A stretch of 59,378 bases of DNA, counting the filler. It is 3 parts of 3 records of this genome, joined end to end, with 100 filler letters (N's around TTAATTAATTAA, not from the genome) between each part and the next. Parts side by side here need not be neighbours in the genome. Positions count along the whole stretch, not along the records: positions 20,721 to 41,890 come from SRR31156797_3968; 2 more parts are not named here. One strand, given 5' to 3'. The position numbers were made by a program, and so were the translations under genes. Each line of letters opens with the position of its first letter. The first letter of the stretch is position 1. The notes under the pieces were generated by a model. It did no database searches and was not told the origin of the DNA. It saw only the letters and a list, made by a program, of their open reading frames with translations. Of this stretch, positions 5,451 through 31,607 are shown one piece after another.

Positions 5451-6680
5451 ATGGCCAAAGTTTCACTGGAAAAAGAAAAGATCAAGATACTACTCCTTGA
5501 AGGACTTCACCCATCTTCTGTTGAAGTTCTGCAAGCTGCTGGCTATACCAACATTGAATATGTAAAAGGTTCTTTGGAAGAGCCGGAACTGATTGAAGCA
5601 ATCAAAGATGTTCACTTTATCGGGATTCGCTCCCGTACGAACCTGACAGAAAAAGTGATTAACGCTGCAGAGAAACTTGTCGCTATCGGTTGTTTCTGTA
5701 TTGGTACCAACCAAGTCAATCTTGATGCCGCAGCCGCTCGCGGTATTCCAGTGTTCAACGCACCATTCTCAAACACTCGTAGTGTCGCAGAGTTGGTACT
5801 GGGTGAAATTCTATTGATGCTTCGTGGCATTCCAGAAAAGAATGCGCTTGCTCACCGTGGTATTTGGAAGAAAAGTGCAGACAACTCATACGAAGCTCGT
5901 GGTAAAGCTCTTGGTATCATCGGTTACGGCCACATTGGTACTCAGCTAGGTATTATTGCTGAAAACTTAGGTATGCGCGTTTACTTCTACGACATCGAAA
6001 ACAAACTATCGCTGGGTAATGCTACTCAAATCCATACCATGAGTGAACTACTGAACAAATGTGATGTTATCTCTCTTCATGTTCCTGAAACACCAGAAAC
6101 TAAGAACATGATGGGTAAAGAACAGTTCGACCGCATGAAGCCAGGTTCAATCTTCATTAACGCGGCTCGCGGCACCGTTGTGGATATTCCAGCACTGTGT
6201 GATGCTATGGAATCTGGCCACCTAGCGGGTGCGGCGATTGACGTATTCCCAACAGAGCCAGGCTCAAACAAAGAAGCATTCGAATCTCCTCTAATGAAAT
6301 TCGACAACGTGATCCTAACTCCGCACGTTGGTGGTTCAACACAAGAAGCACAAGAAAATATCGGTATCGAAGTTGCCGGTAAACTCGCGAAATACTCAGA
6401 TAACGGTTCAACGCTCTCTAGCGTTAACTTCCCTGAAGTATCGCTGCCTGAGCATCGTCAATGTTCTCGTCTACTACACATTCACGAAAACCGCCCAGGT
6501 ATTCTGACGCAAATCAACACCATCTTTGCTTCTGAGGGCATCAACATCGCCGCTCAGTACCTGCAAACTACGGCAAATATCGGTTACGTAGTGATTGATG
6601 TTGAGGTCGATCGTTCAGAAGAGGCGTTAGAGAAACTGAAAGGTATCGAAGGCACAATGCGTGCTCGTATTCTTCACTAA
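5451..6680 (+). CDS. serA: D-3-phosphoglycerate dehydrogenase
   Basis: GIIGYGHIG, INAARG, TPHVGGSTQEAQ, C-terminal ACT domain (HENRPG). Confidence 0.97.
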   Translation: MAKVSLEKEKIKILLLEGLHPSSVEVLQAAGYTNIEYVKGSLEEPELIEAIKDVHFIGIRSRTNLTEKVINAAEKLVAIGCFCIGTNQVNLDAAAARGIPVFNAPFSNTRSVAELVLGEILLMLRGIPEKNALAHRGIWKKSADNSYEARGKALGIIGYGHIGTQLGIIAENLGMRVYFYDIENKLSLGNATQIHTMSELLNKCDVISLHVPETPETKNMMGKEQFDRMKPGSIFINAARGTVVDIPALCDAMESGHLAGAAIDVFPTEPGSNKEAFESPLMKFDNVILTPHVGGSTQEAQENIGIEVAGKLAKYSDNGSTLSSVNFPEVSLPEHRQCSRLLHIHENRPGILTQINTIFASEGINIAAQYLQTTANIGYVVIDVEVDRSEEALEKLKGIEGTMRARILH

Positions 6681-21112: not shown

Positions 21113-22996
21113 ATGATTAAAAGTCTTTTTTTTATAACAACTGTAATACTGCTTATTGTTTGTCATACACAAGGTATGGCCAATAGTAAAACAGACAGCT
21201 TGCGCATTTTAATCCAAGACGAGAACGAAGATTCCATCCGCATCAAAGCTTTGTTAGATTTGGGTGATGAGCTGATTCTAAAATCACACACCGAAGCATT
21301 GGATTGTTATTATCAATCGCGCATGCTCGCCGAAAAAAATAGCGACACTACTTATATTGTATATAATTTAATTGGTATATGCGATGTGTATTCTATGATG
21401 GGTGAATACAAGCAGGCTTTAGCGTTTGTGGAGGAAGCACGTGAATTAGCCACTGGAAACTACGAATTGTTGGCTGCTGTGCATAGCCGTTTAGCAGTTG
21501 AGTACTTTAATCTAAGCGAATTTGATTTGTCGCTCGAAAACGATAAGCTATCCTTAATGTATAATCAAATACTAAAGGATACTATTCAAATGGCATATGA
21601 TTATCACAATATAGGTACTTATTATTTGGGTATTCAAAATATAGATAGTGCATTGGTTTATTATCAACGGTCTGATTCATTGCTTGGGGCGAGAGATGAA
21701 ATTTTACATGCCTACAATAATAGTCGTATGGGCTTTGCAAAGTCATATAATAAGGAATATTTAGCCTCATTACCATATCACGAAAAAGCACTAGCATATT
21801 ATGCTAAAGATAGCTTATTATACGAAATGGCGCAGGAAGAAAACTATATGTCTTCGGCCTATTACAGCAGTCATCAATTAATAAAAGCTACTGAACATGC
21901 TCAAAAAGCTTTAAAGTATAGTGTAAAATTAAACAACCATCAGTTATTGTGCAATAATTATGATTTGTTGTATGATATTTACAACAAACAAAAGGATTAT
22001 AAAAAGGCACTGGAATATACCTTACTTGAAAAAGCATACACTGATTCCCTGGAGGAAAAAAACAAGGAAAGTATTATTCAATCCATGAAAACGAGACACC
22101 GTTTTATGGAACAGAAAAAGATATTAGAGGCTACAGAAGAATCCAATGTACAATTATCTCGTCAACGAATGCAATTGCTTATTTTTAGCTGTGTAAGTGT
22201 GTTTTTGTTGGTGGTGGTGATTATTATATCTAAACAAAACCGAAAAAAGCATCAAAAAAATAAGGAGTTGTTAGTTGAATTAAATCATGTAAATGATTCA
22301 ATTAGAAAACTACTTTCAATTATTGGTCACGATTTAAGAGATTCTGTAGGGAACCTGAAAAACTTTACGCAGTTGATGCACTACGAATTATTGGACAACA
22401 AGTCGGTAAAAGATATGATCCGGATGTTTGTTCCTATGATTGATTCAACACACGGATTGTTAGAAAACCTGCTTACCTGGTCAAAAAATGACAGCGATAA
22501 TTTTCAGCCCCAGATTGAAAAGCTCAATACAAAGGAGATGGCTCAAATCGTAATTGGACAGGTTTATAATATCGCTAAAAATAAAAATATCAGCATTGAG
22601 CAAAATATAGAAGAAGGGACAATTTGTGCCGATAAAAATATGTTGCTAACTGTTTTAAGAAACCTGTTAAGTAATGCCATTAAGTTTTCGAAGGATGGAG
22701 ACAAGGTGATTTTAAAATGCAATTTGCATGATAATCAAGTTGTTTTTTCGGTACTAGATTATGGGGTAGGGTTAAATCAGGAGCAGATTGATAAAATTTT
22801 AGGCGAAGAAACTTTTCATACATCAGGAACTTCAGGCGAAAGAGGATCTGGTTTAGGGCTCTCGCTTTGTGCTTCATTTATTGCCAAGCATGGTGGTAAA
22901 TTAACTATTGAAAGTGAACCAGGAAATGGTGCCTGCTTTCATTTTCAAATTCCGTCGGAATGTTCGAGAGCTAGAAAGATTGAAACAATGCTGTGA
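21113..22996 (+). CDS. TPR-repeat membrane sensor histidine kinase
   Basis: Signal-like N-terminus, TPR-like helices, TM segment, H-box IIGHDLR, N-box RNLLSNAIKF, DYGVG, GSGLGL. Confidence 0.9.
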   Translation: MIKSLFFITTVILLIVCHTQGMANSKTDSLRILIQDENEDSIRIKALLDLGDELILKSHTEALDCYYQSRMLAEKNSDTTYIVYNLIGICDVYSMMGEYKQALAFVEEARELATGNYELLAAVHSRLAVEYFNLSEFDLSLENDKLSLMYNQILKDTIQMAYDYHNIGTYYLGIQNIDSALVYYQRSDSLLGARDEILHAYNNSRMGFAKSYNKEYLASLPYHEKALAYYAKDSLLYEMAQEENYMSSAYYSSHQLIKATEHAQKALKYSVKLNNHQLLCNNYDLLYDIYNKQKDYKKALEYTLLEKAYTDSLEEKNKESIIQSMKTRHRFMEQKKILEATEESNVQLSRQRMQLLIFSCVSVFLLVVVIIISKQNRKKHQKNKELLVELNHVNDSIRKLLSIIGHDLRDSVGNLKNFTQLMHYELLDNKSVKDMIRMFVPMIDSTHGLLENLLTWSKNDSDNFQPQIEKLNTKEMAQIVIGQVYNIAKNKNISIEQNIEEGTICADKNMLLTVLRNLLSNAIKFSKDGDKVILKCNLHDNQVVFSVLDYGVGLNQEQIDKILGEETFHTSGTSGERGSGLGLSLCASFIAKHGGKLTIESEPGNGACFHFQIPSECSRARKIETML

Positions 22997-24921
22997 AAAT
23001 TTATAGTATACATATTCACCAGCATGTACGACTGTTTGGAAAGGCTATCCTTTTAAAATATTGGAGTGTAGTTTTACTATGTGTACTGCTTTTCTTATTT
23101 TCTTCAATAGCTTATTCTTCTACTTCAACTATTGATAGTCTGAAAGCCAGAATTCAAACAGAAACGAACGATTCAATAAAAGTAAGACTGTATTATTCTT
23201 TGGGTGCGGATTTACTAACCAAATCTCATAATGAATCTTTACAATATTATCAGCAGTGTTACGAACTGGCTAAAAAAACGAAGGATACCATGTATATGGT
23301 GCACAGCCTGGTGGGTATGTGCGACTTTTACAATGTAATAGGAGAATACAAAAAGGCCATTTTGTATGTAACTGAAGCGATGGACTTATTAGGGGATGAG
23401 GATTATAACGAATTAAGTTATTGCTATGGTCGTCTGGCTACTGTATATGCCGATATGGGATTAAACGAAAAAAGCATGCAGTATGATCGGATGAGTATTG
23501 CTTGCAACCGGAAGATTAATAATAGAGAAGGACTGGCCTACGATTATAGTAATATAGCTACTTATTTTTTGGATGAAGAAAACCCGCAACCTGATTCTGC
23601 GATTTATTATTATAGTAAGGCGACAACATATTTGGATGATACTACGGATGATTTAACGAGTTTTATTTGGGGAGGATTGGGTGATGCCTATTTTTTTAAA
23701 GCCGAATACGATAAAGCTTTGCGATATCAGCAAAAAGCGTATCAGAACTTTTTAAAGTCGAATTCAATCTATGATTTAGTGTACGAAGAAAATGCCTTAG
23801 CGGGTACTTTCATGAAAATGCAGCAAAAAGACAGTGTACTTTTTTATTTGGCAGAAGCCGAATCACATTCGAAATTGCTGAATAATTTAAGCTGTTTGGT
23901 TGATGTGTATAATTTATACTATAAGTATTATAATGAGCAGGGAGATTATAAAAAGGCTTTGGAATATGTCAGGTTAGAACAAGCATATTCGGATTCTGTA
24001 TCTCAAAAAAACAATGAGAACGAACTACATCTTTTGCATTATTCAATTGATATTGAAGAACAACAAAATATTCTGAATTCAGAAACTGCAATTCACCACA
24101 AGCTTGTTTTACACCGAACTTTATTGCTTATTTTTTTTACAATTAGTGTTAGTCTTTTGGCGGCATATCTGGTTTTGATTTATAAACGAAAACAAGAAAT
24201 TAGACAGCATACGGATTTAATTACACAGGTGGATAACGGAAATTATGCGATCAAAAGAATTCTTTCTATTATAGGTCATGATTTAAGAGATTCTGTTGGG
24301 AATTTAAAGCAATTTACCCGTTTGATGCATTACGAGCTATTGGATAACCGTTCTATAAAACAGATGGTTCAAAAGTTTATTCCTATGGTAGATTCTACCC
24401 ATAGTTTATTGGAAACTTTACTTGCCTGGACCAGATATAATGATGATAACTTTGTTCCACAATACGAACAGCTAAATGCATCAGAATTAATACAGCTAAC
24501 CATTAGTCATATGGAACATGTGGCAAATGCTAAAAAAATAAACCTGCATAGCCAGACAGGGGATGTGAGTTTTATGGCAGATAAAAACATGATGCTAACG
24601 GTATTAAGGAACCTGGTAAGTAATGCCATCAAGTACTCAGATCCGGGTTTGGATGTAGTTATATCTGCAAATCAAAAAGGGGATTATCTTGCTTTTTCTG
24701 TAAAAGATGAGGGGATTGGCATGAATGAGGAACAGGTAAATCTCATATTTAAGGAACATAATACAACGCATACCAAAGGTACACTTGGCGAAAGCGGTTC
24801 GGGACTTGGTTTATCTTTGTGTCATTCTTTTATATTAAAGCATGGAGGCGTTCTTAAGGTTGAGAGCCACCCAGACAAGGGAAGTACATTTACTTTCTCC
24901 ATTCCGATAAAAAACAGTTAG
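22993..24921 (+). CDS. TPR-repeat membrane sensor histidine kinase (paralog of the upstream gene)
   Basis: Same architecture; IIGHDLRDSVGNLK, RNLVSNAIKY, DEGIG, GSGLGL; start uncertain (GTGA overlap). Confidence 0.88.
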   Translation: MKIYSIHIHQHVRLFGKAILLKYWSVVLLCVLLFLFSSIAYSSTSTIDSLKARIQTETNDSIKVRLYYSLGADLLTKSHNESLQYYQQCYELAKKTKDTMYMVHSLVGMCDFYNVIGEYKKAILYVTEAMDLLGDEDYNELSYCYGRLATVYADMGLNEKSMQYDRMSIACNRKINNREGLAYDYSNIATYFLDEENPQPDSAIYYYSKATTYLDDTTDDLTSFIWGGLGDAYFFKAEYDKALRYQQKAYQNFLKSNSIYDLVYEENALAGTFMKMQQKDSVLFYLAEAESHSKLLNNLSCLVDVYNLYYKYYNEQGDYKKALEYVRLEQAYSDSVSQKNNENELHLLHYSIDIEEQQNILNSETAIHHKLVLHRTLLLIFFTISVSLLAAYLVLIYKRKQEIRQHTDLITQVDNGNYAIKRILSIIGHDLRDSVGNLKQFTRLMHYELLDNRSIKQMVQKFIPMVDSTHSLLETLLAWTRYNDDNFVPQYEQLNASELIQLTISHMEHVANAKKINLHSQTGDVSFMADKNMMLTVLRNLVSNAIKYSDPGLDVVISANQKGDYLAFSVKDEGIGMNEEQVNLIFKEHNTTHTKGTLGESGSGLGLSLCHSFILKHGGVLKVESHPDKGSTFTFSIPIKNS

Positions 24922-25631: not shown

Positions 25632-27440
25632 ATGATATTAAAAAAGCTAATTATTAAAAACTTCCGTGGTTATGATAACCTCGAAGTCCCTTTTGACAAA
25701 AAATTCAATGTTATAATTGGAAAGAATGATATAGGCAAATCAACAATCCTAGAAGCTCTGGAAATATTTTTTAATAACAATAATTCAGTCAAACTTGAAA
25801 TTCAGGATTTACATGTTTGGGCTATACGGAAGGAGATAACCATTGGTGTTATTTTTGAAATTGATAAAAATGAAGAATATTTGATTGATTCAGACACGAA
25901 GACAAATCTTGTAGATGAATTCTTATTAAATGAAGATGGAGATTTAGAAATTCATAAAGTTTGGGATTGTACAAAGAATTTATCTGCAAAAAGTTTAAGT
26001 ACATACTTAATTGCAGATTATCCAATAGAATTTGCAGAAACGCCATTGGTTACACTAAAAATATCAGAACTTAAAAAGATTGTTAAGGAAAGAAATGTTG
26101 AATAGAGTGTTGAAGATAAAAGAACTTCATCTGAATATAGAAAAGTTATTTATGAAACTGTAGATACAGCTTCAAAGCAAAAATTAAAAATTGCAGTAGA
26201 TAAAGAAGATGCAAAAGCAATTTGGGGAAGTTTGAGTGCGGAACTTCCCTTTTTTGCATTATTTCAGTCTGATAGACAGAATAAGGATAGTGATAAAGAA
26301 GTACAAGACCCTTTAAAAATAATAACAAAGCAAGCTATTGCAGAGAAAGAAAAAGAGCTACAACAGGTTATCGATGAAATTAGAGCAAAAGCTGAGGCAA
26401 AAGGACAAAAAACTATAGATAAGCTAAGTGAAATGGATGCTGATATTGCGAAAAGTTTATCTCCAAATGTTAGTAATAGAAATTGGGATAGTCTTTTTAG
26501 TTTTTCATTTACAGGAGATGAAGGTATTCCGCTAAATAAAAGAGGAAGTGGTGTCCGCAGATTAATTTTATTGAATTATTTCAGAGCAGAAGCTGAGGAA
26601 AATCAGAGTAGTTCTAAAGGAGTAATATATGCGATTGAAGAGCCGGAAACATCACAACATCCAAATTTCCAGATTATGCTTATTAACTCACTAATTGCGT
26701 TATCCGAGAGTGAGAATAAGCAAGTGATTATTACAACACATAGTCCAGAAATCGCAAAAATTGCCTCAAATCAGAATTTGATTATGGTTTCTCGTAATGG
26801 AGATGATAAGCCAAATATTATTTCAGATGTGGAAGTTAAGTTATCAGCAATTAAAGAAACGTTAGGTATTATGCCATATTTAAGTAAGTTAGTAATATGT
26901 GTAGAGGGAGAACACGATATAAGCTTCTTGAAAAATGTGAATAAAATACCTGAATTTAAAGAGATAATCGATTTTGAATCGGAAAGAATTTCAATAATCC
27001 CGTTACAAGGTGGTAATCTTAAAAATTGGGTTGACCGCAATTATTTAGAGCATACAAATGCAATAGAGTTTCATCTATACGATAGAGACACTAACTCTGG
27101 AAAAAATACAGAGCAATATTGTAAGCAATGTGATGAAATAAACGAACGAAAAAATGGTAGTTGTGCATTAATGACAGTGAAAAGAGAAATGGAAAATTAT
27201 ATACCAAAGGAAACTATAGAAGAATTCTTTGAAATTGATTGCTCATCAATAAAGGATTGGAGTATTGAAGATTTACCAAATTATATATCAAATAAAACAA
27301 AATATACAGAGCAAGCTGTAAAAGGAATTTTAAATGGAAAATTGGCATCTAACATAACTAAAGAAACTTTAGAGCAGATGGATGCTTTTGAAGAGGTAAG
27401 AAGTTGGTTTGAGATAATTTCCCGAATGAATAATAATTAA
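25632..27440 (+). pseudogene. OLD-family ATP-dependent nuclease (ABC ATPase + TOPRIM) interrupted by one in-frame TAG at 26103-26105
   Basis: ORFs 25632-26105 and 26232-27440 share a frame and 26106-26231 is open (SVEDKRTSSEYRK...AIWGSL); Walker A GKNDIGKST, signature RGSGVRR, Walker B IYAIEEPE, ITTHSP, TOPRIM VEGEHD, YDRD, REMENY. Confidence 0.85.
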
Positions 27441-27483: not shown

Positions 27484-28677
27484 ATGGATTTTTTAGAAAT
27501 ATTATCATTTGTATTTGGAGCAATTATCTTAATATTTCCTTACAAATTAAAGAAGCGTTTTTCAGCTAAAGATTTAGGTTCTTTTGCTGCTGTTCTTGGA
27601 ATATTAGGAACCTTTGTCGGTGTTGCTATTGGACTATTCAATTTTCATGAAGAGGATATACAAGGAAGCATACCATTATTGTTAGATGGGTTAACAACTG
27701 CATTTATAACATCCATCATTGGAATGGGAGTTTCTCTTGTTTTAAGAATATGGCCACATATTTATGGAATTAAAGAGGATGTAGAAAATGAAAAGGATGC
27801 AACAATTGAAACATTAGCAGTATTACTAAAAAGTATAAGAGATAATCAAGTAGAAAGCAATAAAACTTTAATAAAAACATTAAATGGAGACGGAGATTCT
27901 ACTATAATAACTCAAATACAAAAGTTAAGAACTACTACATCCGATAGGTTAGAAGAGGTGAATAAGTCATTTAACAGTTTCGCTGAAAAAATGGTCGCCA
28001 ATAATACTCAGGCATTGATTGATGCTCTAACTGATGTTATGAAAGATTTCAATACAAAGATAAATGAACAATTTGGCGAGAATTTTAAAGAGTTAAATAA
28101 TGCTGTACGATTGATGGTTGAGTGGCAAAATAATTATAAGGAACAAATTGATATGTCAATTGCACAACTAGTTAATACTGCTCATTCATTGTCAGATACA
28201 GAGAAGTCCATTGGTTTAATATCTAATAGTTCTACAGTAATGGTCGCAGCTAGTGAGAAAATGGAAATTGCATTAGGAAATATTATTAATGGTTTGGGGA
28301 GCTTAAATGAAATTGGCGAAAAAGCTCAAACTGCATTGCCAAGAATAAATGACAATATTGAACTATTGACTACAAACTTTACTGAAAGAATAAAATCATC
28401 TATTGAAGAAATTCAAAAGCAAAGTGTGAACTTGACAGATACTCAGGACAAAATTAAAGAAGTTACATTAAGTCGAATAGATAATGTAAATGCAAGTATT
28501 GAGAAACAGTTTAAGGAATTAGACGAAGCGTTATCTTATGAATTAACAAAAGCATTAGAGGCTTTAGGAAATCAGTTAGCTTCAGTCTCTAATAAGTTTG
28601 TTCAAGATTATATTCCATTAACAAATAAGCTTCAAGAAGTATTAAGTATTGCAGAACGAATTGAATTGAGGAATTAA
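27484..28677 (+). CDS. zorA: Zorya ZorA (MotA/TolQ/ExbB-like TM domain plus long helical tail)
   Basis: Three TM segments incl. LGILGTFVGVAIGL and LLDGLTTAFITSIIG, then a coiled-coil tail (DFNTKINEQFGENFKELN); precedes the MotB-like gene. Confidence 0.82.
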   Translation: MDFLEILSFVFGAIILIFPYKLKKRFSAKDLGSFAAVLGILGTFVGVAIGLFNFHEEDIQGSIPLLLDGLTTAFITSIIGMGVSLVLRIWPHIYGIKEDVENEKDATIETLAVLLKSIRDNQVESNKTLIKTLNGDGDSTIITQIQKLRTTTSDRLEEVNKSFNSFAEKMVANNTQALIDALTDVMKDFNTKINEQFGENFKELNNAVRLMVEWQNNYKEQIDMSIAQLVNTAHSLSDTEKSIGLISNSSTVMVAASEKMEIALGNIINGLGSLNEIGEKAQTALPRINDNIELLTTNFTERIKSSIEEIQKQSVNLTDTQDKIKEVTLSRIDNVNASIEKQFKELDEALSYELTKALEALGNQLASVSNKFVQDYIPLTNKLQEVLSIAERIELRN

Positions 28678-28682
28678 TTAGT

Positions 28683-29375
28683 ATGGAATTAGGTAATAAT
28701 AAAAGTGATAGTCATTGGATTCATATCTCAGATTTAATGTCTGTGTTAATGATGGTATTCTTGTTTATTGCTATCAGTTATATGTTTGTTGTAAAGGAGC
28801 AATTTACAACGATTAAGGAAATTGCAGTAACCTATAATAAACTGCAACATGATTTGTATAATGATTTGTATGAAGAATTTAAAGATGATTTAGATGACTG
28901 GAATGCAGAAATAGATAGTACTACTATTTCTGTTAAATTTAAAGCTCCAGAAGTTCTATTTAGCCCTGGCGAAGCTGAATTACAACGAGAATTTAAATCT
29001 ATATTAAATGATTTTTTTCCAAGGTATCTAAAAATAATCACCGACTCAGTTTATGTTCAGGATATTGAGGAAATAAAGATCGAAGGCCATACTTCAAGTG
29101 AAGGAAAAGTTGGGATGTCAAAAGACCTTGCATATATCTATAACATGGATTTATCTCAAAAAAGAGCATTTTCAACATTCAACTATATCTATAAATATTT
29201 GATTCCTTACACAAAAAAAGATTGGGCTATAAAACATCTTACAGCAACTGGGTTGTCATTTAGTAAAATTAAACTGGATGAAAATGGAGAAGAAAATAGA
29301 CGACAATCTAGGCGTGTAGAATTTAGAATTAGAACTAATGCGGAAAAAAGAATGGTTAAGATTTTAAATCAATAA
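28683..29375 (+). CDS. zorB: Zorya ZorB (MotB/OmpA-like)
   Basis: WIHISDLMSVLMMVFL TM with conserved Asp; OmpA-like IEGHT, NMDLSQKRA, SRRVEF. Confidence 0.87.
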   Translation: MELGNNKSDSHWIHISDLMSVLMMVFLFIAISYMFVVKEQFTTIKEIAVTYNKLQHDLYNDLYEEFKDDLDDWNAEIDSTTISVKFKAPEVLFSPGEAELQREFKSILNDFFPRYLKIITDSVYVQDIEEIKIEGHTSSEGKVGMSKDLAYIYNMDLSQKRAFSTFNYIYKYLIPYTKKDWAIKHLTATGLSFSKIKLDENGEENRRQSRRVEFRIRTNAEKRMVKILNQ

Positions 29376-29380
29376 AGAGA

Positions 29381-30208
29381 ATGAAACTAAAAGTAGATTT
29401 TTCGAATTTAGAAGCCATTTTAAAAAAAATGGGAGCAGAGTTGTATTCATTGACGGAAGTCAAGATAGAACAAACTGCTCTTGAGATATTGAAAAGTGAT
29501 GATGGTGCAGATGTAGATATAAATGATGATATAGAGTTTAGTACTGATGGTACACTAGTTCATAAAGAAACAGGAAAACCTGTTTTATTATACATTAGAG
29601 AACCATATGGACATTCTCCAAAATATCATATCGCAAGTTGTAGTACACTCAAAGCTTATATAGATAATGGAAGAATTGAGAGATATGTAGCAGCATATCG
29701 TGATAAAGAAAATCCGTCAACAAGATTTAAAGTTAATTTATTACAAGAAGATGGATTTTCAAGAAAACCAGTTTGGAAAGAGTTGTATGTATGTAAGAAT
29801 TGCCTAAAGCAACTTAGTTATAAAGGGTATGGAGCAACTTATGCAAATAAAGAATCAATATATAATAGCTTTAATATAACTGAGTTTTTTGAGTTGTATG
29901 ATACTACAAAACACAATCAGAATCCTAAAAGACAAGAAAATGATTTTAATCAAGATGAATATCCATCTAATTGGTCAGTAATTAGCAGTCGCTATAAAAA
30001 AGGCATTAATTACACTTGTGAAAAGTGTAATCTATCATTAACTGATAATCCAAAATATCTTCATGTGCATCATTTAAATGGATATAAAATGGATTGTGAT
30101 GATAATAACTTGACTGCACTGTGTATAAAATGCCATGCTAATGAACCTCAGCATTCGCATTTGAAAAATCATCCAGATTATAATAGGTATCTATTATTAT
30201 TTGAATGA
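29381..30208 (+). CDS. zorE: Zorya type II ZorE HNH endonuclease
   Basis: KYHIASC, VCKNCL, CEKC...HVHHLNG...NNLTALCIKCH HNH/zinc motif; directly after zorB. Confidence 0.8.
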   Translation: MKLKVDFSNLEAILKKMGAELYSLTEVKIEQTALEILKSDDGADVDINDDIEFSTDGTLVHKETGKPVLLYIREPYGHSPKYHIASCSTLKAYIDNGRIERYVAAYRDKENPSTRFKVNLLQEDGFSRKPVWKELYVCKNCLKQLSYKGYGATYANKESIYNSFNITEFFELYDTTKHNQNPKRQENDFNQDEYPSNWSVISSRYKKGINYTCEKCNLSLTDNPKYLHVHHLNGYKMDCDDNNLTALCIKCHANEPQHSHLKNHPDYNRYLLLFE

Positions 30209-30322
30209 AAGCTTAAATTTTTGTCAGATTAAATTATTCTACTCGCTCTTTTCTTCAGAAGATCTTATTAATTATAGTAATACCTAATACAACGTACTAT
30301 TGGGTACACAATTAAAAAACAT

Positions 30323-30352
30323 AAAAAAAAACTGCCCGAGGGCAGCTTTTTC
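30323..30352. terminator. Bidirectional terminator between zorE and the convergent 218-aa gene
   Basis: A-run, ctgcc-cgag-ggcag, then cttttt. Confidence 0.75.
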
Positions 30353-30366
30353 TCTAATTAATCAGA

Positions 30367-31023
30367 CTAACTCCGAACAAACAAACCTACTGTTTCGAGG
30401 AGGTCGTTACGTTTGCCCAAGGCTATTTTAAGCAGGGTAATAAGTTCGCGATCGCGGGCAATCATTTTTTCCATGGCTTCGTTGCGTTTTTGCGTAGCCA
30501 CTTGTGCTTCACCCTTTTCTTTTTGTTGCTGTTGTTGCATGGCTGCCAGTACTTCTACTTCTGCTTTTTCGGCTTCCAGTGCTTCGGCACCTTTATTAAA
30601 GCGAGCCATTAGTGGCAGCAGGTTGGTATCGTTTAGTATGCCATCGTAAAAAGTACGCATACGTTCAATTTTAGCGTTAATAGCACTTGGCAGTGGAATA
30701 CCAATTTTAAGTGCCGTTTTAAAATCGGAGTTGGCCAATACCAATCGGGCAATACCCTCGGTGGCATCGTAGGAGCTTTCCACCAGGTCTAGTTTTTCAT
30801 CCCTCTGACTGGTAGCCGTGTACTGTTCGCTATACTCCTGTTTTTGTTGTTGATTTAGTGTTCGGGCATCAGTAATAAACCCCAGCGTTTCGTTAACATA
30901 TTCCGGGTTAATATTAAAATTCCCTACCATACTCATAATTTCAGGATTGGCTAAAGTGTTTTGCGCATGCATTTCTGCTAATGCAATTTTCTCATCAATG
31001 GATAGTTTGCTAAATGATTTCAT
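30367..31023 (-). CDS. Uncharacterised helical protein made of two ~105-aa internal repeats
   Basis: 218-aa ORF with its own terminator; halves align (LANPEIMSMVGNFN / LNDTNLLPLMARFN; QQQKQEYSEQYTATSQRDEKL / QQQQKEKGEAQVATQKRNEAM). Confidence 0.8.
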   Translation of the reverse strand: MKSFSKLSIDEKIALAEMHAQNTLANPEIMSMVGNFNINPEYVNETLGFITDARTLNQQQKQEYSEQYTATSQRDEKLDLVESSYDATEGIARLVLANSDFKTALKIGIPLPSAINAKIERMRTFYDGILNDTNLLPLMARFNKGAEALEAEKAEVEVLAAMQQQQQKEKGEAQVATQKRNEAMEKMIARDRELITLLKIALGKRNDLLETVGLFVRS

Positions 31024-31250
31024 TTTTTTATATTATTAGAATTAGTTCTATTAAATATAAAAAAAAATAAATAAGTTTTATTGGGGTGTCTTCTGATTTA
31101 AGGTGATTTGTTTTAATGTTCAAATAGTAAGTTGTTTGTGGTGTTGGTTTGTAGCGGAGTGTAAATGTTTTGTTCGAATTATTTAGTGTGTGATTATAAT
31201 TTATATTCACTATGGTTGTTGTTGTTTAAAGTTACTATGTAGTCTCAAAA

Positions 31251-31553
31251 AATGGTTTTGTAAGCAAAAAAATGACTTTGTAGGCACAAACAATCACTTT
31301 GTAGCCATAAGTAATGACTTTGTAGGCACGAGTATTCATTTCGTAACTAAAAGTAATGATTTCGTAAGTACAAAAAATCATTTTGTAACTCAAACTAATG
31401 ATTTTGTAATCATGACCAATAATTTCGTAGAGGGAAGTATTGATTTTGTAATCATGAGGAATCATTTTACAGCCAGAATAATGACTTTGTAGGTACGAAC
31501 AATCATTTCGTAGGCTAAAAAATGATTTTGCAGGATCAACCCATCATTTCGTA
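31251..31553. repeat. Degenerate tandem array: 15 copies of a 12-bp core AAT(G/C)A(C/T)TT(C/T)GTA separated by 8-9 variable nt (21-bp period, 42-bp higher-order period)
   Basis: Cores start at 31251, 31271, 31292, 31313, 31334, 31355, 31376, 31397, 31418, 31439, 31460, 31480, 31501, 31521, 31542; a possible degenerate copy at 31230. Confidence 0.92.
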
Positions 31554-31564
31554 ATTTCATTTTG

Positions 31565-31607
31565 TTAAAATGTTTAATTAATGAGTTTAAAAGGTTAAAC
31601 ATTTTAA
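31565..31607. promoter_or_regulatory. Perfect 13-bp inverted repeat, putative operator or hairpin
   Basis: TTAAAATGTTTAA-N17-TTAAACATTTTAA between the array and the DoxX gene. Confidence 0.45.

Follow-up and report, generated by a model that had tools for sequence, protein, structure and literature searches.

A 21-bp tandem repeat array paired with the gene for a two-repeat helical protein, and the conservation of this pairing across bacteria

Introduction

In iteron–Rep and parC–ParR systems, direct repeats of about 11–22 bp lie beside the gene for the protein that binds them, often over its promoter, giving autoregulation, while the variable-number tandem repeats (VNTRs) of bacterial promoters and leaders, which are short and species-specific, tune expression; to our knowledge, no motif in VNTRs of this kind is conserved between species. 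The present article concerns an array of 15 short tandem units and the neighbouring gene for a 218-residue helical protein, both found in a stretch of DNA of 59,378 nucleotides (referred to throughout as the window), together with the homologous pairings found elsewhere. Conserved pairings of a small protein with an array of short repeats have repeatedly marked new biology, the cases in point being CRISPR, type III toxin-antitoxin and TIGR-Tas systems. As set out in the part of PMC3401426 drawn upon here, type III toxin-antitoxin loci have repeats of 31–62 nt in 1.9–5.6 copies, with a terminator preceding the toxin gene, and their toxins are RNases of the ToxN-like kind. TIGR arrays, according to the portion of PMC12045711 drawn upon here, combine two alternating repeats of 8–12 nt with variable 9-nt spacers, give processed RNAs of 36 nt and are associated with Nop-domain proteins; the repeats of the tigRNAs are box C/D-like, starting with UG and ending with CCA (PMC12045711, same portion).

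By the features compared in the final section, the pairing described here belongs to none of these three classes. It is nonetheless real, and is conserved across at least six phyla. The protein belongs to a family of 3679 clusters (at 50% identity) for which no annotation, Pfam model or structural relative was found, and the co-oriented 21-bp array is the one firm clue to its biology.

The array and its gene in the window

The array runs from 31247 to 31553 and is made up of 15 units of 20–21 bp, each consisting of a 12-bp core, AATSAYTTYGTA as read on the + strand, and a further 8–9 bp; the cores start at 31251, 31271, 31292, 31313, 31334, 31355, 31376, 31397, 31418, 31439, 31460, 31480, 31501, 31521 and 31542. 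Searching with AATSAYTTYGTA at up to one mismatch recovers 14 of the 15 cores, on the + strand, the one at 31460 having two mismatches. Over the whole window the same search returns 18 matches, as against 3.45 ± 1.95 expected and a maximum of 9 in 100 shuffles; the array is far beyond what chance would give. Tandem Repeats Finder (TRF), applied to 31271–31553, reports a period of 42 with 6.8 copies and a score of 193, as well as further rows at period 21. The cores at 31271, 31313, 31355, 31397, 31439, 31480 and 31521 are of a G type and have C-type cores between them, so making a 42-bp super-unit, and from 31271 onwards the sole break in this alternation is an A-type core (AATAAT) at 31418. 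Three of the steps between cores are of 20 bp (31251 to 31271, 31460 to 31480 and 31501 to 31521). The original prediction, made from the letters of the window, had described a 15-copy array of 12-bp cores with G/C alternation some 230 nt upstream of the gene, and this description holds, the distance from the ATG of the gene to the nearest core being 228 bp. Because the array core AATSATT is palindromic, the strand of the motif is ambiguous in the window's own array; in the twin array of a sister strain (locus L001) the two strands score 8.8 and 6.0 bits per unit against a position weight matrix of the motif shared between loci, and the form that the motif takes on the gene strand of the window is TACRAAnTSAWT.

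The gene itself, called as an open reading frame (ORF) on the − strand at 30367–31023 with the array upstream of it, encodes an acidic, all-helical protein made up of two repeats of about 105 residues. That the protein is internally repeated had also been proposed, and two lines of evidence agree with it: the halves align with a score of 64, compared with 27.7 ± 5.2 for 200 shuffles, and in an AlphaFold2 (AF2) model built from a 38-sequence alignment (mean predicted local distance difference test score 95.7) they are equivalent. In this model, which is helical throughout, each half is predicted to have two short helices and one 57-residue helix, the predicted limits being 9–25, 27–36 and 40–97 in the first half and 115–131, 135–140 and 146–202 in the second. 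The sister strain is about 97% identical to the window in this region, and its copy of the gene differs at 17 nucleotides while the proteins are 99% identical, which points to purifying selection on the gene.

Between the array and the start codon lies an AT-rich gap of 223 bp (31024–31246, − strand), which presumably carries the promoter and leader of the gene. Twelve nucleotides past the stop codon there is a terminator-like hairpin of 14 pairs with a 4-nt loop, followed by a run of T (30323–30354, − strand), so that the gene looks monocistronic. The Rfam model STnc370, an enterobacterial small RNA, has a sub-threshold match at 30270–30358 on the + strand (31.9 bits against a threshold of 54, E 0.1); this overlaps the terminator hairpin and is almost certainly a chance match. 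Just past the far end of the array there is a perfect 13-nt inverted repeat (31565–31607; TTAAAATGTTTAA and TTAAACATTTTAA, with the arms 17 nt apart).

Conservation of the pairing across bacteria

A search with the single protein sequence yielded only 6 relatives, while a profile of these located 209 places in contigs representing one genome per species, and the loci obtained could then be examined for flanking arrays. The criterion used was autocorrelation in 105-nt windows over periods of 15–29, a positive being a locus for which period 21 was best with a score of at least 0.5; the upstream test covered the 900 bp before the gene and was confined to loci with 300 nt or more of upstream sequence, two duplicate loci being set aside. 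A period-21 array was found upstream of the homologous gene in 59 of 72 loci, and in two further loci the upstream period was 20 instead of 21. Control windows from the same loci were positive in 2 of 77 cases downstream and 1 of 57 far upstream (3 of 134 in total). When the loci are oriented so that the homologue lies on the + strand, TRF likewise reports arrays of 21, 42 or 63 bp just upstream in most of them. A lack of arrays beside homologues had been set beforehand as grounds for abandoning any link between gene and array; they prove to be generally present.

The carriers are labelled as Bacteroidota, Cyanobacteria, Anaerolineae, Calditrichota, Ignavibacteria, Pirellulaceae (Planctomycetes-type), metagenome-assembled genomes (MAGs) labelled Bacillota, and others, and their proteins are 25–33% identical to that of the window. 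The array usually ends 18–250 bp from the ATG. Among 337 spacings between unit anchors, 208 are of 21 bp, 10 of 20 bp and 7 of 22 bp, the many spacings of 10–12 bp reflecting anchors that occur twice per unit and one run of N. Arrays of very different G+C content have a motif in common, with the consensus AAATCGTTCCCGAC on the gene strand, and in 34 of the 36 loci where the strand could be called (those with a difference of 3 bits per unit or more between strands) the motif is on the strand of the gene. The gene strand of the arrays is A-rich in 40 of 49 cases and has more C than G in 33 of 49, and a two-unit superperiod of 42 bp, like that of the window, is seen in 14 of 41 loci.

Some other features of these loci may be recorded here. 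In three Anaerolineales loci whose arrays lie downstream of the gene (L017, 756–1000; L034, 4473–4720; L064, 6591–6830) a long conserved hairpin (GCGCATCGTGTGAGGCTG ... CAGCCTCACACCATGCGC) follows the gene, a second hairpin precedes the array, and another conserved block lies past it. A second type of repeat, with units of 7–8 nt of the form GACTT(T/G)nn, occupies the last 100 nt or so before the start codon, in the interval between array and gene, at L015, L024 and L042, which are loci from Bacillota- and Bacteroidota-labelled MAGs.

Genes without arrays and arrays without genes

The original prediction had taken gene and array to be a single module. The conserved pairing just described supports this, while a closer look at individual genomes shows the relationship to be less exclusive than had been assumed, about one gene in six having no clear array. 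The genome of the sister strain (G001) is instructive, as it contains seven paralogues of the gene: besides the counterpart of the window's gene there are six others, of which L217 has a clear array built on a different unit, L215 and L216 have weak arrays, and the remaining three have none. Conversely, this genome contains three arrays with the window's type of unit, only one of which is the counterpart of that in the window, the other two having no gene of the family nearby. One of these (L207, 1490–1730) has 11 units and lies beside an insertion sequence (IS) transposase, and the other (L222, 1420–1745), of about 16 units, occupies the interval separating two convergent genes. Similarly, two metagenomic orphan arrays (L129 and L108) are 80–86% identical to the gene-linked array of L096, and have unrelated flanks and no gene of the family.

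A wider scan of metagenomes for three copies of AAATSRTTC at 21-nt spacing gave at least 119 array-like loci, with the gene present in 4 of the 80 that had flanks. Many of these matches are short repeats of 3–5 units in or beside unrelated genes; since the pattern thus also catches unrelated 21-bp repeats, the fraction with a gene is not meaningful. The neighbours of the metagenomic arrays show no recurring family. On one metagenomic contig (L143, 88–2154) an array extends over 2 kb; it is made up of about 98 units of 21 bp, their core, AAACCATTC, is a related one, and no ORF spans the array. Three paralogues of one MAG (L005, L006 and L007) lie within about 300 nt of the ends of three separate contigs with the array at the edge, and in L005 and L006 it is within the array that the contig stops; short-read assembly is probably interrupted by such arrays.

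The protein family

A second profile (A2), built from 38 members, matches 429 clusters at 90% identity, for which the informative source names are all "hypothetical protein", and 3679 representatives at 50% identity, of which 1361 have E values of 1e-30 or better. Members are nearly all of 211–220 residues and stand alone. No longer, fused forms came to light when they were looked for, though this counts as weak evidence; where a gene call exceeds the usual length, as a few do, the excess is an N-terminal heptad extension translated through the array, and in this way the arrays mislead gene callers. A central motif, KE[YK]GE..AT, is conserved in both of the long helices.

Comparisons intended to place this family among known proteins were uniformly negative. 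Pfam gave no family for the window protein at E ≤ 0.01, the family has no match among PADLOC or Protein Data Bank (PDB) sequences, and Foldseek gave no match at E ≤ 0.001 in the PDB or BFVD. The top VIA score (Z 9.6, for YscO, BAR, SipB and similar proteins) is in the range of generic long-helix matches. Three more specific resemblances were looked for: there is no Pfam Nop match at E ≤ 0.1 among the 38 members, and no Nop5, Prp31 or Tas chain among the Foldseek or VIA matches listed; no Rep winged-helix or ribbon-helix-helix (RHH) family appears in Pfam for the 38 members, nor any such chain among the fold matches listed; and no similarity to ToxN, CptN or TenpN is found in Pfam or PADLOC, nor a ToxN-like chain among the fold matches listed. 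The ESM Atlas offered one lead, to DUF6261 (score 0.88), which was rejected after hhalign gave a probability of 0.3% against a DUF6261 neighbour in L051, and otherwise only unnamed clusters. Viral contigs held no relative of the protein, and tblastn against plasmids and phages gave no match to the proteins of the window or of L073, these being two single-sequence queries of low sensitivity. No description of the protein family or the array was found in the literature searched.

Transcription, promoters and unit number

Evidence on transcription comes from one stranded run of raw reads from Riemerella anatipestifer, mapped to L043; runs consisting only of contigs are uninformative on expression. 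Over the array the sense depth in successive bins is 62, 36, 76 and 158, compared with 150–370 over most of the gene, and the antisense depth is less than 10% of the sense depth in every bin, so that in this species the array is transcribed in the sense direction. Fifty-two reads extend upstream past the array into strain-specific sequence, from which it follows that the transcript starts beyond the array. The gene is well expressed, and RNA 3′ ends accumulate just past its stop codon. The sense strand of the Riemerella array contains no ORF.

Comparison of strains with L043 shows differences inside the array of exactly 21 bp (X1 and X4) or a net 42 bp (X24 and X12), the length changes at 5715–5774 and 5753 of L043 being of −21 bp and a net −42 bp. 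As these are whole units, it is the number of units that is polymorphic, and in R. anatipestifer such differences could serve as a strain marker.

The position of the promoter appears to differ between loci. In the window, a weak sigma-70-like match lies on the − strand at 31061–31032, and promoter-like matches in this region are no more numerous than in shuffles; no terminator-like site was found between array and gene (31024–31246), the sole − strand site being the one that follows the gene. Inspection by eye shows hairpins before the ATG in L040, L048 and L078 only. In the three paralogues of one MAG (L005–L007) a canonical −35/−10 pair (TTGACA, TTGCCA or TTGGCA, then 17 or 18 nt, then TAnnnT) can be picked out by eye between array and gene, while L024 has a strong promoter-like pair ahead of its array, implying that the array can precede the core promoter in some loci and lie inside the transcript in others.

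As to the array RNA, Rfam gave nothing at gathering level in 13 array loci and nothing at E ≤ 0.1 in the three Anaerolineales loci, and strand asymmetry with respect to G-U pairing showed no general signal across arrays.

Genomic neighbourhood

The original prediction placed the gene next to a defence island, and this is the case: a complete Zorya type II system (ZorA2, ZorB2 and the HNH protein ZorE2, with E values of 4e-84, 2e-86 and 2e-63; 27484–30208, + strand) directly adjoins the gene on the opposite strand, the two being convergent. Before this come an ATPase of the AriA/GajA/OLD type, apparently split into an N-terminal ORF of 157 residues (25632–26105) and a C-terminal ORF of 402 residues (26232–27440) on the + strand with a gap of 126 bp, where either the gene is broken or the sequencing may have introduced a frameshift, and, upstream of the ATPase, two adjacent proteins of about 630 residues each with TPR and HATPase_c domains (21113–24921, + strand), one of which has a weak PADLOC match to PDC-M43B. 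PADLOC found no cas families for seven neighbouring ORFs of the window.

Across loci, no conserved neighbour gene was found among 127 flanking ORFs, and in particular no conserved partner NTPase or Rep-like gene. These ORFs include Uma2 (15 instances), PIN (4), HsdR (2), GmrSD, ThsA, RES, PemK and IS elements. The Uma2 (PF05685) neighbours are mostly cyanobacterial (L009, L010, L031, L035, L050, L054, L055, L057, L059, L061, L068 and L070; also L006 and L038), and may be there by chance, given the many copies in those genomes, or through shared synteny.

Interpretation

The explanation we prefer, which is put forward tentatively and as possible rather than probable, is that the array is a cis-acting multivalent regulatory element of the gene's expression unit. 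Array and gene would then be two parts of one conserved, co-oriented genetic unit, in which the array, with its 5–15 near-identical repetitions of a single short motif, would serve as a multivalent binding platform that sets the amount of the adjacent helical protein made. The form in which the array is recognised might be DNA, immediately preceding the core promoter, or RNA, as part of a long leader, and the evidence fits either. The encoded protein would be the most economical candidate binder, acting as an autoregulator; its two repeats would match the alternation of units over 42 bp that about a third of arrays display, and copy number, changing by whole units, would tune the response. We infer, rather than observe, that the motif is bound, that this affects expression, and who the binder might be. 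The observed association, co-orientation, usual upstream position and whole-unit changes fit a cis-acting element, and the occurrence of paralogues without an array and of arrays without the gene fits a regulatory element better than it does an obligate partner.

Several observations nevertheless weigh against a cis-acting regulatory element. The family is acidic (median isoelectric point 5.0 and net charge −6.5 over 38 members) and fold searches of the protein revealed no recognisable nucleic-acid-binding fold, so that its chemistry gives autoregulation no support. No RNA structure beyond that of shuffled sequences is predicted (median z about −0.5 on both strands, 49 arrays), and the 10/11-bp half-period that phasing on DNA would predict is significant in just 3 of 49 arrays. 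Orphan arrays have no orientation bias relative to their neighbours, the downstream gene in the metagenome scan being on the same strand in 10 cases and the opposite strand in 14. The RNA evidence comes from a single run of a single species, and the Riemerella reads over the array could be due to read-through from an upstream gene on the same strand. Lastly, in the three Anaerolineales loci (L017, L034 and L064) the array lies about 250 nt past the stop codon, on the same strand, L034 and L064 being both of the positives among the downstream control windows and L017 a relative of theirs, while in L022 and L075 the array is inverted. Arrays placed or oriented in these ways are hard to reconcile with a simple promoter or leader element, and keep alive the two alternatives based on RNA–protein and DNA–protein recognition that are considered below.

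Two other explanations can be put largely aside on the evidence of the arrays themselves. That the array is, or was until recently, the coding sequence of a small beta-roll-like protein with heptad repeats (N[DH]FVxxx or xIVPDHx), in the window a decayed pseudogene, is very improbable. Such a protein would account for the period (21 bp being seven codons), for the way in which C/T variation in the window cores falls at third positions of an N-[DH]-F-V frame on the + strand, and for gene callers sometimes extending ORFs through arrays; furthermore, the corresponding ORF in the window (31190–31492, + strand, 100 residues) has a match to PF21300 (LbR_Ice_bind) at 29 bits and E 1e-6, below the cut-off of 30, and an array ORF at L123, from the metagenome scan, matches the same family. 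However, the ORF in the window stops at a TAA, the − strand offers ORFs of only 76 and 51 residues over the array, and with three 20-bp steps no single ORF covers it, as had been predicted. The N[DH] reading can be had from either strand simply as a consequence of the palindromic core, and an open frame in some loci is to be expected because a tandem repeat of seven codons should be open in some frame by chance. Seven gene-adjacent arrays (L001, L013, L027, L032, L037, L076 and L077) have stops in all six frames, and of the frames anchored on the motif none is open in more than 19 of 36 loci (17 of 36 for the LVVGNDF frame), so the intact, conserved heptad ORF that the original prediction had named as its refuting case is not borne out. 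Units of 20 and 22 bp occur, the conserved nucleotides (GTCGG...AAYGAT) remain constant even where the frame leading from one to the next differs among loci, and in Riemerella there is hardly any transcription antisense to the gene and no ORF on the sense strand. Thus the array is not generally coding. An array of guides in the manner of TIGR or CRISPR, with 8–9-nt spacers directing the protein to targets, is extremely improbable. The layout in the window is TIGR-like, having two alternating repeats of about 12 nt, gaps of about 9 nt, seven double units and a small helical protein, but positions 11–21 of the unit match the locus consensus about as well as core positions 1–10 do (0.74 against 0.77, 41 loci) and the arrays of L005, L006, L044 and L073 contain near-identical copies of the unit. 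The intervening stretches are not variable and hence are not guides, nor is the array one of true spacers; the descent of these stretches by tandem duplication that the original prediction had favoured is upheld, and a guide reading of the CRISPR or TIGR kind is not supported. Nor, to complete the case against guides, was any Nop domain detected, UG...CCA repeat ends are absent, and there are no cas families among the seven neighbouring ORFs of the window.

The remaining two alternatives give the encoded protein a different part to play. It seems unlikely, though by no means fanciful, that the locus is a ribonucleoprotein module resembling type III toxin-antitoxin systems, in which the array would be transcribed and cut into 21- or 42-nt RNAs that bind the helical protein, neutralising or arming it, as an addiction or anti-phage unit. 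A same-strand array beside the gene for a protein of about 200 residues, usually upstream and rarely downstream, is the layout of that class in the part of PMC3401426 referred to above; Riemerella shows sense transcription of the array; the neighbourhoods are rich in defence, toxin-antitoxin and mobile genes, with Zorya type II beside the gene in the window; there are many paralogues per genome (seven in G001), and the unit of L217 is unlike that of the window; and two alternating unit types could suit the protein's two repeats. What tells against such a module is that the window has no terminator between array and gene, that 5–15 units of 21 nt are a poor match for the 31–62 nt and 1.9–5.6 copies given for known families in that part of the source, that the protein is acidic, helical and not ToxN-like, and that, unlike known antitoxin repeats with their pseudoknots, the array RNA is predicted to have no structure. 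Sequencing depth over the array is also lower than over the gene, in a library that would lose small RNAs, and genes without arrays and arrays without genes both occur. If instead the arrays were DNA sites in the manner of iterons or centromeres, bound in trans by the protein or a paralogue (orphan arrays included) for DNA organisation, marking or defence sensing, which we regard as distinctly unlikely, one could understand why a unit of 21 bp, or two turns of B-DNA, is kept across phyla, why the palindromic core begins with an A-tract, why arrays can be inverted or downstream, and why G001 combines seven paralogues with three arrays of the same type, two of them remote from genes of the family. 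A DNA site would have no need of the 34:2 strand bias, however, and the acidic protein with no known DNA-binding fold, the rarity of the 10/11-bp half-period, the lack of a conserved partner NTPase or Rep-like gene nearby, and the lack of plasmid or phage copies in the two low-sensitivity tblastn queries all speak against this. A bolder proposal, spanning both of these possibilities and to our minds doubtful, is that array and protein constitute an unrecognised, widespread RNA–protein or DNA–protein system enriched in defence islands, in which the array would supply 21- or 42-nt copies of a ligand, each half of the protein would read one of the alternating unit types, and each paralogue would have its cognate array. 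Were that so, a new class would be added to those of the type III toxin-antitoxin, TIGR-Tas and CRISPR systems, with a fold that has no known relatives and thousands of members in at least six phyla.

Comparison with known systems

Of the systems introduced at the outset, type III toxin-antitoxin loci (toxIN, cptIN and tenpIN), as far as they are described in the part of PMC3401426 used, have most in common with the present loci in outward arrangement: both have short direct repeats on the same strand as, and beside, the gene for a protein of about 150–220 residues, usually upstream and exceptionally downstream, in an accessory or defence setting, and in both the array is transcribed in the sense direction. 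The differences are that here the unit is of 21 nt (42 as a pair) and present in 5–15 copies, that in the window no terminator precedes the gene, that the array RNA is predicted to be unstructured, and that the protein is an acidic helical bundle with no similarity to ToxN, CptN or TenpN. With TIGR-Tas systems, again within the portion of PMC12045711 used, the present loci share short alternating repeats with gaps of about 9 nt, 5–15 units, and a position upstream or downstream of the gene for a small, largely helical protein. They differ in having gaps that are not variable and a period of 21/42 as opposed to about 36, in the sequence of the cores (AAUSAYUUYGUA or UACRAARUSAUU in the window, with no CCA end on either strand), and in that no Nop domain was detected in the protein. 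CRISPR-Cas arrays, where repeats of 25–36 nt alternate with unique spacers of similar size, differ from the 12-bp cores and conserved 8–9-bp gaps seen here.

In contrast to the iteron–Rep and parC–ParR systems, the modules here are chromosomal and present in multiple copies (seven paralogues in one genome) and the protein is acidic; no Rep, winged-helix or RHH domain was found in it, there was no partner NTPase, and the two single-sequence tblastn queries gave no plasmid matches. With the VNTRs of promoters and leaders the present arrays share the placing of a tandem repeat between the promoter region and the gene, and a number of units that varies between strains. They differ in that the period, the motif and the partner gene are all kept across phyla, which would make this an unusual array even if its role were purely cis-regulatory.

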